64,000 nucleotides of DNA from a virus: positions 1-64,000 of the IMG/VR virus record IMGVR_UViG_3300024346_000008; one strand, written 5' to 3'. The translations under genes were made by a program, and so were the position numbers. The notes under the pieces were generated by a model. It was not told the origin of the DNA and did no database searches. It was given only the letters and a program-made list of their open reading frames with translations. This document shows positions 5,889 to 10,029 of this stretch, piece after piece; position 1 is the stretch's first letter; every line of letters begins with the position of its first letter.

Positions 5889-5953
5889 TTGACAAACGAC
5901 CTACACTAGTGTATATTACAAGAGTAGTGAAGAACGACACGTTATTTGACAAC
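5889..5953 (+). promoter_or_regulatory. sigma70-type promoter plus boxA-like element of the main tRNA operon
   Basis: TTGACA-17-TATATT; GTTATTTGACAAC at 5941-5953. Confidence 0.75.
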
Positions 5954-5957
5954 TAAA

Positions 5958-6018
5958 GGGGGTTACTTTCCGAGTTCCCTCGCACAAAACTCCGACGTTT
6001 GGTTCACGTAACGAACCA
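5958..6018 (+). ncRNA. pseudoknot-plus-hairpin RNA motif, copy 1
   Basis: covaries with the copy at 9335-9396. Confidence 0.7.
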
Positions 6019-6022
6019 CTTT

Positions 6023-6055
6023 GCCACCTTCGTCTATCGGTTAGGACGTTTTTTC
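6023..6055 (+). pseudogene. 5' remnant of a tRNA-Glu
   Basis: GCCACCT-TC-GTCTATCGGTTAGGAC is a typical Glu acceptor strand and D arm; sequence then collapses. Confidence 0.7.
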
Positions 6056-6098
6056 AAAGTATCATACTATTTATAGTAAATGATTAACTGAGAAATAT

Positions 6099-6701
6099 AT
6101 GTCAAAACTAGGTGGATATAGAGAAGGTTCGGGAAGAAGTAAATCGGGATATTATAACGGTATTTACTGCGGGTCTACTTATGAACTATGTTGGGTGATA
6201 TACGCACTTGACACTCAAGTAAAATTTGATAGATTTAAAGGAATCTTACGAGGTAATAATATATCATATGTTCCTGACTTTCTCTTGAAGGATGGCAAAA
6301 CAATAATAGAATTAAAAGGATATGAATCACAAGATAGAGTTAATGAAAAAACAAAATTGGCAGAAAGTCTTGGATATACCGTGGTTGTCTTACGAAAAGA
6401 CGATTTAAAAGATGTGTTTGCGTATGTTGCTAATAAATTTGGAACTAAAAAGTTTCATACGTTATATGATGGTTATAAACCAAAATATACTTACACTTGT
6501 TCAAATTGTGGTAACTCATTGACCAGAGACAATCAGTTAAAATCAACCAATGTGTTTTGTTCAAGAGTTTGCGCAGGCCTAGGCAATAGACCGCACACGA
6601 TTTTGTCTAAGCAAAAAGTATTAGATAGGGCAAAAAGATTCTACGAAAAAAATAAAGAATTAATTAATAAAAAACGTAGAGAAAAATATAATAGTAAATA
6701 A
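6099..6701 (+). CDS. PD-(D/E)XK endonuclease (TnsA-like) with C-terminal Zn finger
   Basis: S.YE, YVPDF, IIELKG; CSNC...FCSRVC. Confidence 0.8.
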   Translation: MSKLGGYREGSGRSKSGYYNGIYCGSTYELCWVIYALDTQVKFDRFKGILRGNNISYVPDFLLKDGKTIIELKGYESQDRVNEKTKLAESLGYTVVVLRKDDLKDVFAYVANKFGTKKFHTLYDGYKPKYTYTCSNCGNSLTRDNQLKSTNVFCSRVCAGLGNRPHTILSKQKVLDRAKRFYEKNKELINKKRREKYNSK

Positions 6702-6704
6702 TAT

Positions 6705-6776
6705 GGCGCGTTCTTCTAGCGGCTAGGAAGCTTGACTTTCACTCAAGTAAGACGGGTTCGATTCCCGTACGCGCTA
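6705..6776 (+). tRNA. tRNA-Glu(TTC)
   Basis: cloverleaf; cttga-CT TTC AC-tcaag. Confidence 0.9.
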
Positions 6777-6968
6777 CTTATCCCGTCCGTTTCTATATGT
6801 GGTAGACGTTAAACAAAAACATATTCGGTACATGAACTCCGACAATATTCATGAGTGGTTCGCACCAGCTTAGTGGTGGTAAGGGTTGGGAAAAATATTG
6901 AATAGCTAACAATATTTGGGGAACCTACTAGATACTGTGGAAAGTATCTGACAATCCCCACCCACTAT

Positions 6969-7040
6969 TGGCCTATCGTATAACGGTTATTACTCTTGGC
7001 TTTGAACCAAGTAATCGGGGTTCGATTCCCTGTAGGCCTA
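6969..7040 (+). tRNA. tRNA-Gln(TTG)
   Basis: cttgg-CT TTG AA-ccaag. Confidence 0.9.
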
Positions 7041-7097
7041 TTGTAGTACGGACGCTCTACCGATTAGAGTATGATTAATTTTTCTTTGGGTATACAC

Positions 7098-7253
7098 ATG
7101 AAAGTTTTTATGGTTTTCGCAGTGATGGCAATGACAGCATGTTCCAGTGCAAAGACTGAGACGGTTGCTGATACCTCGGCAACTACCACGGTTGATAGTG
7201 CCGGAGTTATTAATGTTACAACTGATTCGGTTCGCACCGATTCCGTCAAGTAA
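7098..7253 (+). CDS. small lipoprotein
   Basis: signal peptide with lipobox MTAC; T/D/S-rich tail. Confidence 0.7.
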   Translation: MKVFMVFAVMAMTACSSAKTETVADTSATTTVDSAGVINVTTDSVRTDSVK

Positions 7254-7254
7254 A

Positions 7255-7366
7255 GCATTTCTGATGAGGCTTTAATAGCCGTAATGTTGGAGGCGGTTTG
7301 CGCGTGAGCGGTCACAAACTGTCAGACTTTGGTCGGCCGGTCGCTCGGCTATCCAACATAAAATGC
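7255..7366 (+). ncRNA. type I hammerhead ribozyme variant (GUAA in place of GAAA) with structured insert in stem III
   Basis: GCATTT-CTGATGA-GGCT/AGCC-GTA-ATGTTGGA...TCCAACAT-A-AAATGC. Confidence 0.7.
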
Positions 7367-7458
7367 AGTAATTAAATTTTACGAGGAGTTGGTCAGTCCC
7401 TCGGTGAAAGAGATCGCAACTCTAAAGACATGATCGATCACCATGTCACTGACTGTAC

Positions 7459-7528
7459 GCGGTTTTGGTGTAACAGTAGCACGGTCGGCGTCCAGCTGAA
7501 CAGTCCGGTGCAAATCCGTGAAACCGCT
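7459..7528 (+). tRNA. atypical tRNA-Gly(TCC)
   Basis: GCGGTTT/AAACCGC acceptor with U73; loop CG TCC AG; degenerate D and T arms. Confidence 0.55.
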
Positions 7529-7532
7529 CTTT

Positions 7533-7605
7533 GGGTCTTAGGTGTAAATGGGTGCACGTCTGCTTTGCAAGCAGAAGGTAATCGGTTCGATACCGATAAG
7601 ATCCA
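7533..7605 (+). tRNA. tRNA-Ala(TGC)
   Basis: G3.U70; tctgc-TT TGC AA-gcaga. Confidence 0.9.
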
Positions 7606-7621
7606 CTTGACAAAATTAATT

Positions 7622-7712
7622 GGGCGAGGTAACGTGCAGAAAGACGTTTCTGTGGGAGTCACCACACGGTAGCCCCGTGTTTAGGAAGCCGGTTCGAATC
7701 CGGCCTCGTCCA
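7622..7712 (+). ncRNA. tRNA-like RNA with Ala acceptor and branched anticodon arm
   Basis: GGGCGAG/CTCGTCC-A, perfect T arm, two hairpins instead of an anticodon loop. Confidence 0.65.
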
Positions 7713-7713
7713 C

Positions 7714-7869
7714 TTGACAAATAATGTTTGATAGGTTATATTAAAAGAGTACGATACTGACGCGGGGTAGAGAAGCAGTAACTCATTTGGCTCATAACCA
7801 AAAGATCGTGGGTGCAATTCCCACCTCCGCCATAAGATACTTGACAAATGAAGGTCACTAGGTTATATT
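7714..7869 (+). promoter_or_regulatory. two internal sigma70-type promoters (7714, 7841)
   Basis: TTGACA-17-TATATT twice, each followed by AAAAGA. Confidence 0.8.
7761..7832 (+). tRNA. tRNA-Met(CAT), initiator-like
   Basis: CGCGGGG start, C1.C72 mismatch, CT CAT AA. Confidence 0.85.
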
Positions 7870-7879
7870 AAAAGAATAC

Positions 7880-7962
7880 GCTCCTATGGTGAAATCGGTA
7901 AACACAAGAGACTTAAAATCTCTCGCTCGAAAGGCTTGTCGGTTCGATTCCGACTGGGAGCA
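7880..7962 (+). tRNA. tRNA-Leu(TAA)
   Basis: long variable arm; CT TAA AA. Confidence 0.9.
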
Positions 7963-7968
7963 CTTAAT

Positions 7969-8040
7969 GCACTGCAAGCATTAATGGTGATGCAGGAGGC
8001 TTTTAACCTTCAGAACACGGATCGTTACCGTGGCGGTGCA
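7969..8040 (+). tRNA. tRNA-Lys(TTT), atypical T loop
   Basis: ggagg-CT TTT AA-ccttc; T loop ATCGTTA. Confidence 0.8.
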
Positions 8041-8111
8041 CTGATTATATGTAAACCAGTTGTTTGACATTCTTCTACTCTACGTATATACGTACACAAA
8101 AGGAGAATTAT

Positions 8112-8537
8112 ATGAAAAAACTTCCACCAAAATATTGTTTATATTGTAATATTATGTTATCGTCTGCACATGGCCATCGTAGAGGAGCAAAATATTGTAA
8201 CAACCAATGTCAGCAAGATTATCAATACAAAGTTTATATTGATAAATGGAAGCGCAGAGAAATTGACGGGTCTAAAGGACTTGGAGTATCTGCATATGTG
8301 AAACGATATCTCAGACAAAAATATAATAATAAATGTTCTAAATGTGGATGGAGTAAACCAAATCCAATAACTGGCCAAGCAATTTTAGAAGTAGACCATA
8401 TTAACGGAAACTGGAAAGACAATTCAGAAGAAAATCTAGATCTCATTTGCTGCAATTGTCATACTCTTACAATAAATTATAAAGCTTTGAATATAGGAAA
8501 CGGAAGAAATAGTTATTTGAAATCTTTGGAAACGTAG
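8112..8537 (+). CDS. HNH homing endonuclease, free-standing
   Basis: CSKCG, LEVDHINGNWKDN, NL..ICCNCH; AGGAG SD. Confidence 0.9.
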   Translation: MKKLPPKYCLYCNIMLSSAHGHRRGAKYCNNQCQQDYQYKVYIDKWKRREIDGSKGLGVSAYVKRYLRQKYNNKCSKCGWSKPNPITGQAILEVDHINGNWKDNSEENLDLICCNCHTLTINYKALNIGNGRNSYLKSLET

Positions 8538-8545
8538 TACAATTA

Positions 8546-8620
8546 CCGCCACGAGCCAGCTAGGTTGACGGCGCTCGTCTTATATACGAGAGATGCTCGG
8601 TTCAAATCCGAGGTGGCGGA
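8546..8620 (+). tRNA. tRNA-Ile(TAT)
   Basis: CCGCCAC/GTGGCGG-A; ctcgt-CT TAT AT-acgag. Confidence 0.8.
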
Positions 8621-8622
8621 CT

Positions 8623-8745
8623 TTAAAATATTAATCATGCGTAAAAGGAACGGATAGATACTGGACGAGGGTGGCACCTCACCGAAGGGTTTAAAGTAAG
8701 AGCCAGTCCTAATGTTCTGCCACCAGCCTCTGATTAATATTTTAG
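8623..8745 (+). ncRNA. putative pseudoknotted ncRNA
   Basis: 15-bp closing stem; loop GGTGGCA pairs TGCCACC. Confidence 0.6.
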
Positions 8746-8783
8746 TTTTGAAGTACACTAAATACTAAACACTAACAGGAAAT

Positions 8784-8951
8784 ATGACTAAGACAAAAAC
8801 TCTGCAAGACGGTGAATTGGTAAAAACTTCTCTTATTGCCCTACGAGATGAATTTATTCAAAAGAGTGGCAATGGAAGATATGATATTCCATTAAATGAA
8901 GTAATCATGAAAATTAACTCTTGCTTATTTTCAAAGTATCCAGTAATTTAG
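8784..8951 (+). CDS. 55-aa hypothetical protein
   Basis: AGGA SD; preceded by 22-bp repeat. Confidence 0.55.
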   Translation: MTKTKTLQDGELVKTSLIALRDEFIQKSGNGRYDIPLNEVIMKINSCLFSKYPVI

Positions 8952-8985
8952 TTTTGAAGTACACTAAACATTAAAAAGGAATATA

Positions 8986-9201
8986 ATGACGCGAGAATTC
9001 TTGTTGAGTGGCACAGAAATAGCAGAAATGAATAAGATTAGAGAAGCTGTTAAATATTTATTTGGTCAACACTGTATTAAGCTTGAAGAACATATCTTTT
9101 CTTCTGGCGGTGGTATAGGTCCACACTGTATACACTTTCGACTTGTAACTACCGAAGATGTAGAAGTACGAAAGGATGTTACTGATTATGGTAGTTGGTA
9201 A
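8986..9201 (+). CDS. hypothetical protein
   Basis: AAGGA SD; GGGIG...DVTDYGSW; preceded by the same 22-bp repeat. Confidence 0.7.
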   Translation: MTREFLLSGTEIAEMNKIREAVKYLFGQHCIKLEEHIFSSGGGIGPHCIHFRLVTTEDVEVRKDVTDYGSW

Positions 9202-9207
9202 ATATAT

Positions 9208-9281
9208 GGTCCTATAGCTCAGTCGGTTAGAGCAGTGCACTCATAATGCAACGGTCGCGGGTTCAATTCCTGCTGGGACCA
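9208..9281 (+). tRNA. tRNA(CAT), probably Ile2
   Basis: TAGCTCAGTCGGTTAGAGC D arm; CT CAT AA. Confidence 0.85.
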
Positions 9282-9334
9282 CTTGGTGAGTAGGTAAGAT
9301 GAAGATGGCTAGCTATTTCTTATCGTCGTCACCG

Positions 9335-9396
9335 ACGAGTTTACTTTCCGAGTTCTCGTACGCAAAACTCCGACGAATGATTCACGATAAGAATCA
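9335..9396 (+). ncRNA. pseudoknot-plus-hairpin RNA motif, copy 2
   Basis: covaries with 5958-6018. Confidence 0.7.
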
Positions 9397-9400
9397 ATCT

Positions 9401-9472
9401 GCATGTGTCATATAACGGTCATTATCCAAGTTTTCCAAACTTGAGACGCGGGTTCGACTCCCGCCACATGCT
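9401..9472 (+). tRNA. tRNA-Gly(TCC)
   Basis: caagt-TT TCC AA-acttg; U73. Confidence 0.9.
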
Positions 9473-9948: not shown

Positions 9949-10029
9949 GGTGGTGGGTGCGGGTTCGAATCCCGTTACAGCGATGCGACTTTAGCTATGC
10001 TGTATAGCTTAATGGTAGAGTGCCACATT
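9949..10029 (+). ncRNA. circularly permuted tRNA-like RNA (YrlA-like module)
   Basis: T arm precedes D arm; acceptor stem closed by a 14-nt linker. Confidence 0.75.

Follow-up and report, generated by a model that had tools for sequence, protein, structure and literature searches.

Two copies of what is, with high confidence, a conserved non-coding RNA of ~60 nt, encoded on the + strand of uncultured T4-type phages, lie at 5958-6018 and 9335-9396 of the window (the 64,000-nt stretch analysed here, positions 1 to 64,000 of IMG/VR virus record IMGVR_UViG_3300024346_000008) in a phage that carries a Gp23-type capsid gene. Each copy consists of a putative pseudoknot and a 3' hairpin, a module that belongs to no Rfam family and that is, from its distribution among related phages, an optional insert in tRNA operons. 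Both copies had been reported in a first-pass annotation, whose reading is identical to ours letter for letter. A 35-nt degenerate core pattern matches these two sites only, both in the window and across the whole 163.9-kb virus record, and has 0 matches in 100 shuffles of the window.

In copy 1, the core (5958-5997, + strand) is composed of S1a GGGGG (5958-5962), the loop L1 UUACUUUCC (5963-5971), S2a GAGUU (5972-5976), S1b CCCUC (5977-5981), L3 GCACAA (5982-5987), S2b AACUC (5988-5992) and the segment CGACG (5993-5997). The 3' hairpin, P3 (6000-6018, +), pairs UGGUUC with GAACCA around the loop ACGUAAC and is followed by the 4-nt spacer CUUU (6019-6022). Copy 2 has the same order of elements, with a core (9335-9375, +) of S1a ACGAG (9335-9339), L1 UUUACUUUCC (9340-9349), S2a GAGUU (9350-9354), S1b CUCGU (9355-9359), L3 ACGCAA (9360-9365), S2b AACUC (9366-9370) and CGACG (9371-9375), and a P3 (9378-9396, +) of UGAUUC, loop ACGAUAA and GAAUCA, followed by the spacer AUCU (9397-9400). 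Copy 2 is additionally preceded by a P0 domain (9285-9333, +), in which the closing stem GGUGA (9285-9289)/UCACC (9329-9333) encloses an inner hairpin; this closing stem covaries, reading GGUAG/CUACC in two relatives (L003 and L004). The invariant segments UUUACUUUCC-GAGUU and AACUC-CGACG can pair as S2, which would give an H-type pseudoknot, and a two-pair extension of S2 across a C.C mismatch is possible.

Some eight further independent variants of the module are found in uncultured phage contigs, all of them 3-6 nt upstream of a tRNA-Glu(UUC) or tRNA-Gly(UCC)-type gene. S1 takes five sequences, each of which pairs (GGGGG/CCCUC, AGGG/CCCU, ACGAG/CUCGU, UCGUG/CACGG and UGGG/CCCG), and P3 changes in the same compensatory manner (UGGUUC/GAACCA, UGAUUC/GAAUCA, UGCCCC/GAGGCA and UGGCUC/GAGCCA). 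Both-sided changes affect three of the five stem-1 pairs and three hairpin pairs across homologues, 89% of cells are paired as opposed to 27-52% with slid partners, and the observed covariation score was reached by no shuffle. The compensatory change of stem 1 and the 3' hairpin, which the first-pass annotation had described between the two copies, thus extends to the homologues, and judged from these changes the RNA structure is under selection. Since G.U pairs are confined to the + strand, the RNA is assigned to that strand. The module is also non-coding: copy 1 is immediately preceded by a stop codon and has no start codon, homologues differ in reading frame owing to an indel in L3, and the compensatory changes of P3, if translated, would be radical amino-acid changes.

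The loop UUUACUUUCC, GAGUU/AACUC and CGACG, which the first-pass annotation had likewise called invariant, remain so across the variants, the sole exception being one U-to-C in one variant. These loops and CGACG are kept while the stems have fully diverged, also in variants whose retrieval did not require them (L067 was retrieved via its leader sequence and L071 via a covariance model). All five S2 pairs are invariant, a complementarity without any covariation, and because stem 2 never varies, the pseudoknot is plausible but unproven. Homologues had been proposed as the test of the pairings, and S1 and P3 are indeed mostly paired in them, but L071 lacks S1 while keeping S2, and L067 has a weakened S1 (3/5 pairs) and a loop substitution. 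L071 further contains an internal segment antisense to UUUCCGAGUU and a 5' leader whose GUCGGA pairs with the invariant UCCGAC; its lack of S1, together with the antisense segment, suggests alternative folds. Single-sequence folding energies are no better than those of shuffles (z -0.3 to -0.9) in a program that cannot score pseudoknots. The original interpretation, a ligand-binding, catalytic or nuclease-blocking RNA, is partly supported: what stands is a real, conserved, strand-specific structured RNA, with the pseudoknot as a plausible part of it.

The module was not recognised as a known family at first reading, and the searches bear this out. Rfam 15 cmscan of positions 1-30000 of the window at E<=1 returned tRNAs and weak unrelated matches only, with none at either copy, and the two copies, scanned in isolation at E<=10, gave only 8-11-bit noise and no family, including ribozymes, preQ1-I and SAM-II. 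Cultured-phage records held no match to the module, GTDB genomes gave chance matches only, and no description was found in the literature searched.

Copy 1 lies downstream of an early promoter of the sigma-70 type (TTGACA-17-TATATT, 5889-5917, +), its predicted driver, and promoters of this family are also present near 1050, 7714, 7841 and 9595. The transcription start predicted from this promoter would give a 5' leader (5925-5957, +) with a small hairpin, AACG (5933-5936)-ACA-CGUU (5940-5943), the loop of which is ACA, AGA, CCA or AUA in relatives; promoter and leader are conserved in five of these (L024, L026, L027, L067 and L068). Four nucleotides downstream of copy 1 is a 26-nt 5' remnant of a tRNA-Glu(UUC), comprising the acceptor strand and D arm (6023-6048, +), and neither ARAGORN nor Rfam detects a tRNA right after this copy. 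The earlier statement that each copy stands 4 nt before a tRNA is consequently correct for copy 2, but not for copy 1, which precedes this remnant only. Positions 6031-6048 of the remnant and the following U6 have a weak terminator-like hairpin score. Beyond this U-run, an ORF (6099-6701, +) is followed by a replacement tRNA-Glu(UUC) that is complete (6705-6777, +; ARAGORN and Rfam) and belongs to the same cassette. The 200-aa product of the ORF is a probable free-standing homing endonuclease, its activity being predicted from weak matches to DUF559/Vsr-like and zinc-finger domains (PF04480 at E 3.4e-4, marginally over its cut-off). The resident tRNA-Glu was truncated by this cassette. An intact tRNA-Glu homologous to the remnant is present in L024, L026, L038, L067 and L071, and in all of these except L038 the intact tRNA-Glu(UUC) begins 4-6 nt after the module. 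Copy 1 retains all invariant positions and a 5-bp S1, although the tRNA that followed it has been destroyed.

Copy 2 occupies an insert directly downstream of tRNA-Met(CAU) (9208-9282, +), with 52 nt between that tRNA and S1. It precedes tRNA-Gly(UCC) (9401-9472, +), the start of which is placed at 9401 by acceptor pairing and Rfam and at 9403 by ARAGORN; this 5' end is, from general tRNA biology, the presumed RNase P site. In four sister phages (L005, L007, L008 and L038), tRNA-Met and tRNA-Gly are separated by 2-5 nt and the module is absent, and in L038/L068 and L029 the slot between promoter and tRNA-Glu is taken by strong structures unrelated to the module, which stop 5-7 nt short of the tRNA. 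Because sister phages have the two tRNAs this close together, or other structures in the slot, the downstream tRNA does not need the module.

We propose, tentatively and at somewhat short of an even chance, that RNase P matures the module into a cargo RNA, with a 3' end protected by a hairpin and with invariant loops that bind a putative partner. The module would be co-transcribed with tRNAs, copy 1 from its own early promoter and copy 2 between tRNA-Met and tRNA-Gly. RNase P cleaves at tRNA +1, and a cut by the host enzyme at the tRNA 5' end would free the module as an RNA of ~100-120 nt that ends in P3 and a tail of 3-6 nt. A search of the 163.9-kb record for bacterial RNase P RNA (RF00010) gave no match at E<=10, while controls matched. 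PNPase and RNase II require longer single-stranded 3' tails, and the tail of the freed RNA would be too short for efficient loading of 3' exonucleases, so that P3 would take the part played by the terminator hairpin in ordinary small RNAs. The sequence of P3 varies, yet its end is always 3-6 nt from the tRNA 5' end, and 3'-end protection fits such a hairpin, placed just before the RNase P site, better than it fits the pseudoknot. The working part would be the surface of invariant loop and CGACG held by the stems, which a putative protein or RNA partner would recognise in a sequence-specific manner. If this is true, the tRNA array would act as a scaffold on which a cargo small RNA is processed.

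We count in favour of a cargo RNA the selection on its structure, the G.U pairs on the + strand and the lack of coding potential, and further that P3 keeps its distance of 3-6 nt from the tRNA, that copy 1 is intact though its tRNA is destroyed, that the tRNA needs no module, and that the loops are invariant while the stems have diverged. Counted against it are the absence of S1 and the antisense segment in L071, the weakened S1 and substituted loop of L067, the invariance of S2 and the unremarkable folding energies, as well as the occurrence of the module only before Glu(UUC) and Gly(UCC) tRNAs, which could indicate a role in cis tied to those tRNAs. This restriction can also follow from common descent together with the like-for-like replacement of tRNAs that endonucleases drive.

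The most probable alternative, though unlikely in itself, is a leader element of the pre-tRNA that acts in cis and serves the downstream tRNA-Glu(UUC) or tRNA-Gly(UCC). Such an element could be a self-folding insulator against mispairing of upstream RNA (promoter leaders, or the tRNA remnants of cassettes) with the tRNA; it could also stabilise the precursor, or a factor that processes or modifies these two U34 tRNAs could dock on it. The exclusive association with these two tRNA types is consistent with this notion, as it spans three different junctions and Gly(UCC) genes of two unrelated sequences, and so is the fixed distance of 3-6 nt to the tRNA 5' end. In L025, the module sits precisely at the junction of the 16 nt left over from the old tRNA-Gly with the replacement tRNA, a useful spot for an insulator, and L1 holds UUUCC, which contains the anticodons UUC and UCC, each after a U. 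The loop of L067, however, is ACUUCCC and loses the U-UUC mimic right beside a tRNA-Glu, homologous tRNAs are expressed in sister phages without the module, and at least 25 invariant nucleotides would be needless for an insulator. Copy 1 is, moreover, perfectly conserved despite its destroyed tRNA, although the insertion may be recent.

A feature acting at the DNA level or selfishly, either a homing-endonuclease or recombination site or neutral baggage co-converted with endonuclease and replacement-tRNA cassettes, is very unlikely. The tRNA arrays are rich in endonuclease cassettes, and the L025 module is itself part of one, together with a replacement tRNA-Gly-like gene and an HNH ORF, that splits the resident tRNA-Gly; L004 and L019 have the module in common but differ in the tRNA that follows, and the copy-2 insert is missing in sister phages. 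Most module copies nevertheless lack an adjacent endonuclease, and the fact that two helices change compensatorily, with G.U pairs on one strand only, indicates selection on RNA rather than on a DNA site. Hitchhiking would account for the spread of the module, but not for its invariant loops.

Still less probable is a new self-cleaving ribozyme tied to tRNA maturation, which would correspond, on the upstream side, to the HDV-like theta ribozymes that process tRNA 3' trailers in gut phages (PMC10879173). The module has the typical traits of small ribozymes (~40-60 nt, a putative pseudoknot and an invariant block between variable stems) and shares with theta ribozymes a tight linkage to phage tRNAs (PMC10879173), but it matches no Rfam ribozyme family even at the permissive threshold used for the isolated copies, the order of its helices does not fit the nested double pseudoknot of HDV-like ribozymes, the S1 strands enclose no P3-type hairpin, outside the tRNA nothing beyond the 3' hairpin could serve as P2 partner, and upstream of a tRNA the job is already done by RNase P. 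Equally improbable is a ligand- or factor-responsive, riboswitch-like conformational switch over read-through or processing of the tRNA operon, to which the putative H-type topology with U-rich L1 and A-rich L3, as in small pseudoknot aptamers, the copy-2 helix UCGUCG (9323-9328)/CGACGA (9333-9338), which overlaps S1a and has a terminator-like score, and the antisense and leader pairings to L1-S2a and UCCGAC in L071 might point, but no competing helix is conserved from one type to another, the loop lengths differ from preQ1-I, no Rfam aptamer model matches, and no terminator or ribosome-site platform is conserved, P3 being followed by no U-run and, 3-6 nt away, by a tRNA as the next gene, which argues against a classical riboswitch.

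The module nonetheless resembles several known systems in part. Like preQ1-I, SAM-II/SAM-V and guanidine-III, it would fold compactly, within ~35-40 nt, into an H-type pseudoknot in which L1 is rich in pyrimidines, L3 is rich in A and variable stems flank invariant loop nucleotides; it differs from these aptamers in having no expression platform, a tRNA as next gene and no Rfam match. In preQ1-I, L1 is short and the A-rich L3 is long, whereas L1, L2 and L3 of the module are 9-10, 0-1 and 5-8 nt long. Type III antitoxin RNAs (ToxI) are short pseudoknots with conserved, protein-bound single-stranded parts, their tandem repeats are processed by the toxin, and phages can carry ToxI mimics (pseudo-ToxI decoys) as counter-defence. 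The copies of the module, unlike ToxI, are single tRNA-flanked units, 3.4 kb apart, without an Rfam family at E<=10, and we know of no evident sequence similarity to ToxI and of no toxin partner.

Theta ribozymes are minimal HDV-like RNAs that adjoin tRNAs of uncultured Caudoviricetes, where a role in processing tRNA transcripts has been proposed; they are placed after the tRNA, have their cleavage site at their own 5' end and fold into a nested double pseudoknot of P1, P1.1, P2 and P3 (PMC10879173). The module is likewise a small, putatively pseudoknotted RNA tightly linked to phage tRNA genes, but it is located upstream of the tRNA, combines one putative H-type pseudoknot with a hairpin and gives no match to HDV-family models. 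The species 1 and species 2 RNAs of T4 (rnaC and rnaD) are small stable non-tRNA RNAs that are co-transcribed with the tRNAs of the T4 cluster, and their function remains unknown (AF158101). The module, too, lies inside the tRNA array of a T4-type phage, with an early promoter, here read from sequence, upstream, and would be co-transcribed with the tRNAs. rnaC and rnaD differ from it in showing no sequence or structure similarity (with filters off, covariance model R1 scored at best 10.3 bits in the T4 tRNA region, at an unrelated place, and 0.9 bits inside rnaC, which includes a canonical T-arm sequence), and they follow tRNA-Arg at the 3' end of the cluster, whereas the putative pseudoknot and the hairpin of the module are 5' of a tRNA.

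At the 3' end of MALAT1 and MEN-beta, an ENE triple helix is followed by the tRNA-like mascRNA, which is cut by RNase P. That system is eukaryotic and its triple helix engages an A-rich tail; the module has a plain hairpin at the cut and a true tRNA downstream, and its processing is proposed only. The logic is the same as that put forward here, in that an RNase P cut at a downstream tRNA-shaped element sets the 3' end and an adjacent compact structure protects it.

The duplicated pseudoknot-type module represents a genuine RNA family that has not been described before and has a narrow distribution. Both copies, at 5958-6018 (copy 1) and 9335-9396 (copy 2), were re-read letter for letter and stand as annotated, and these two sites are all that a degenerate 35-nt core pattern matches, both in the window and in the record as a whole; shuffled sequence gave no match. 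The record, a linear IMG/VR virus sequence of 163.9 kb with an estimated completeness of about 90%, carries a major capsid gene of the T4 Gp23 type and 21 tRNAs (ARAGORN), 17 of them on the + strand in the 6.7-12.8 kb interval. The first-pass annotation had placed each copy 4 nt before a tRNA, which is correct for copy 2, as the tRNA-Gly(UCC) that follows it has its 5' end at 9401 by both acceptor pairing and Rfam, but not for copy 1. Here, what follows after 4 nt is a tRNA-Glu cut off at nucleotide 26, then a U-run and an ORF of 200 aa (6099-6701) with weak DUF559/Vsr-like and zinc-finger matches, and the complete tRNA-Glu begins at 6705. The uncultured contigs L024, L026, L027, L067/L069 and L071/L078 have the original arrangement, in which the same promoter, leader and module are followed after 4-6 nt by an intact tRNA-Glu(UUC). 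The window therefore harbors a remnant-endonuclease-replacement cassette (6023-6777) just 3' of copy 1, consisting of the 26-nt tRNA-Glu 5' piece with its U-run, the 200-aa ORF and a full replacement tRNA-Glu. The D arm of the remnant and the following U6 are scored as a weak terminator.

The proposal that stem 1 (S1) and the 3' hairpin (P3) change in a compensatory manner is borne out in a model-fitted alignment of eight distinct sequences, in which both-sided changes are found at three of the five S1 pairs and at three P3 pairs. Column 9/28 of S1 is occupied by G-C, A-U or U-A, and column 7/30 by C-G, A-U, G.U or U.G. Overall, 89% of the cells are paired, versus 27-52% when the partners are slid, and the observed covariation score was reached by no shuffle. 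The wobble pairs (G.U and U.G) identify the + strand as the RNA, as the complementary strand would have C.A in their place. A protein-coding reading was rejected: there is a stop directly 5' of copy 1 in the sole conserved frame with no start codon after it, length differences in loop L3 among homologues shift the reading frame, and the compensatory P3 changes, if translated, would be radical amino-acid replacements.

The second stem, S2 (GAGUU/AACUC), is perfectly complementary and shows zero variation. This invariance goes beyond search bias, as contigs L067 and L071 were recovered without requiring S2, and no variants of S2 came up in a scan with purine/pyrimidine degeneracy. Because invariance is not covariation, the formation of the pseudoknot is considered probable and no more than that. 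Duplex folding lengthens S2 by a U-A and a C-G pair across a C.C mismatch (UCC-GAGUU with AACUC-CGA), an extension that may explain part of the conservation of the CGACG block and would cut the effective length of loop L1 by ~3 nt. The loop of P3 shows partial conservation (ACGNNAM in six variants). Outside the core, the variants that precede a tRNA-Gly(UCC)-type gene (type 2) have an extra 5' domain, P0 (9285-9333 in copy 2), with a closing stem that covaries (GGUGA/UCACC in the window, GGUAG/CUACC in contigs L003 and L004), and the leaders of the variants that precede tRNA-Glu (type 1) form a mini-hairpin, AACG-NNN-CGUU, with a variable loop. A long-range helix between CGACG and an upstream CGUCG can be drawn for copy 2 and L003/L004, and in a different register for L071; the type 1 copies and contig L025 lack it, and it thus lies outside the conserved fold.

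Building covariance models and searching viral metagenomes had been suggested as a check, and searches with two such models (R1 and R2), together with pattern scans and a leader-anchored scan, yielded, outside the window, some eight independent variants. Type 1 variants are found in L024, L026, L027, L067/L069 and L071/L078, and type 2 variants in L033, L003, L004, L019/L029 and L025; the copy in L033, a marine metagenome contig, is identical in sequence to copy 2. The core of the module is as conserved as the tRNAs themselves. No match to either copy with its flanks was found by blastn among cultured-phage records (INPHARED), and the T4 tRNA region, including the small stable RNAs rnaC and rnaD, has no match to the module. 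In 185,579 GTDB representative genomes there were seven pattern matches, none of them followed by a tRNA; all lie in DNA that is coding or rich in GC and are attributable to chance, and consequently the module does not look host-derived. Further pattern matches in metagenome and viral contigs (L016-L018, L020-L023, L028, L030-L032 and L034) were also set aside as chance, weak model matches in L072 and L073 were discarded as they lie in coding DNA, and a second AACUCCGAC at ~6837-6845 lies in a variable hairpin loop of another spacer and is not a further copy. Consistent with the initial view that no known family is involved, there is no Rfam match, even at E<=10 with isolated copies. The 14-nt core string is absent from the literature searched, and the module could still correspond to an unnamed entry among ~10,000 viral candidate structured RNAs (PMC10690425).

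Two outliers show how far the module can diverge. In L067/L069, the loop reads UUUUACUUCCC and S1 is down to three of five pairs. In L071 (1516-1549, equivalent to L078 1966-1999), S1b and L3 are exchanged for 24 nt holding a local hairpin, indicating that at least one lineage can do without S1. Part of this insert, AACGAGGAAA, is antisense to the invariant UUUCCGAGUU, with which it can form 8 of 10 pairs around a central 2x2 G/A mismatch, and GUCGGA at the very start of the L071 leader is complementary to the invariant UCCGAC; alternative folds are thus possible. Both outliers keep P3 along with the invariant segments.

The module is optional and mobile. The gap between tRNA-Met and tRNA-Gly is 2-5 nt in the related contigs L005, L007, L008 and L038, and in the window the two genes are parted by an insert of ~116 nt comprising P0, core and P3. 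L038 and L068 share promoter and leader with copy 1, but place another strong structure, GGGGGUUGGU...ACCAACCCC, 5 nt before tRNA-Glu (L068 4546-4655, equivalent to L038 11560-11645), and L029 has a third kind of leader structure (7640-7718) that ends 7 nt short of tRNA-Glu; neither occupant of the promoter-to-tRNA-Glu slot is related in sequence to the pseudoknot module. In the closest relatives, as judged by the neighboring AAA+ (CbbQ-type) ATPase gene (91% identity), the 10 kb flanking this gene on each side contain no tRNA array. L004 and L019 have module and P3 in common, followed by different tRNA-Gly(UCC)-type genes. In L025 (minus strand, ~795-1000 and downstream), a resident tRNA-Gly is split by a ~740-nt insert carrying the module, in the order 16-nt 5' remnant, module, replacement tRNA-Gly-like gene, 182-aa HNH ORF and 3' remnant of ~33 nt. 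The presence of the module inside this tRNA-splitting HNH cassette indicates that endonuclease-driven co-conversion aids its spread, which explains the patchy distribution but not the invariant core. L019 (4535-4609, minus strand), L029 and L025 also contain a UCC-anticodon cloverleaf whose T stem has 4 bp and whose 9-nt loop, UGGCAGAAU, lacks T-psi-C; both ARAGORN and the Rfam tRNA model miss it, and it may represent a tRNA-Gly variant that is immune to endonuclease or has a non-translational role.

The mechanism we favor, tentatively, is that the module is a cargo small RNA matured through tRNA processing. It would be co-transcribed with the tRNAs and freed by RNase P at the tRNA 5' end, P3 would shield the short-tailed 3' end, and the invariant surface would be recognized sequence-specifically by a partner. 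This view is based on a structure under selection, invariant loops, a tRNA that does not need the module, and a slot that is also filled by other structured modules; P3 varies in sequence, but the hairpin is always present, 3-6 nt before the RNase P site. The main rival, which we consider doubtful, is a cis role for tRNA-Glu(UUC) and tRNA-Gly(UCC): the module occurs exclusively with these tRNAs and L1 contains UUUCC, but the existence of sister phages without the module weakens the idea. More of a long shot is a new counter-defense or takeover class, in which RNase P frees a hairpin-capped pseudoknot whose loop UUUACUUUCC, which includes the anticodons UUC and UCC, acts with CGACG as a decoy for a host protein, for example an anticodon nuclease, a U34-modification enzyme or a type III-toxin-like RNase; the sequestered protein would act on tRNA-Glu/Gly anticodon loops or on other RNAs. 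Very unlikely are a self-cleaving ribozyme of a new class, for which an HDV-like mapping was rejected, a conformational switch, and a DNA site. Compensatory changes, and wobble pairs confined to one strand, speak against a role at the DNA level alone.

Base-pairing targets of L1 were considered as well. As an anti-Shine-Dalgarno seed it was rejected, since the ribosome sites of this phage are AGGAG-type and GGAAAG occurs in none of 128 start regions. The sole perfect L1 complement (17998-18006, within GGAAAGUAA at 17998-18010) lies one base 5' of the ATG of a small ORF and is within chance expectation. GGAAAGU is universal in RNase P RNA; its 7-nt complementarity to L1 is broken in L067 and is taken as coincidence, and no phage-encoded RNase P RNA is present in the record.

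The spacers between the window tRNAs are mostly 85-590 nt, whereas those of L005, with the same tRNA order, are mostly 3-15 nt, indicating that the window array is inflated by inserted sequence. Interspersed in it are five copies of a strong, near-consensus early promoter, TTGACA-17-TATATT (CTTGACAAA-N-TATATT; ~1050, 5889, 7714, 7841 and 9595), three of which begin ~10-15 nt before a tRNA. Several other long spacers, before the tRNAs at 6968, 7533, 9208, 10714, 11031 and 12319, end in a stable helix 2-8 nt from the tRNA 5' end. This uncontrolled observation would fit a general layout in which structured spacer RNAs abut RNase P sites. The 190-nt spacer after tRNA-Glu (6778-6967) is kept in L067/L069, including hairpins with variable loops, and is probably another conserved non-coding RNA. 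Between tRNA-Thr and tRNA-Pro, 9951-10028 weakly matches the Y RNA-like YrlA family of Rfam (30.6 bits, E 0.006) and contains a canonical T-arm sequence (9955-9975). A tRNA-like element at 7622-7715, with a canonical T arm at 7684-7704 and no ARAGORN call, has a weak Rfam tmRNA match (20.9 bits, E 9e-5).

The tRNA clusters of phages tend to be treated as simple lists of tRNA genes. In the window and in related uncultured T4-type phages, pre-tRNA slots house swappable, strongly structured RNA modules, and the module described here belongs to this wider, poorly explored phage habit of placing structured RNAs directly before tRNAs. At ~60 nt and sharply bounded, it is amenable to tests of partner binding, self-cleavage and RNase P-dependent release. 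If RNase P and the tRNA do serve as a maturation device for cargo RNA, phage tRNA arrays would hold a store of small RNAs yet to be described, and would be a natural counterpart to engineered tRNA-flanked guide-RNA arrays.
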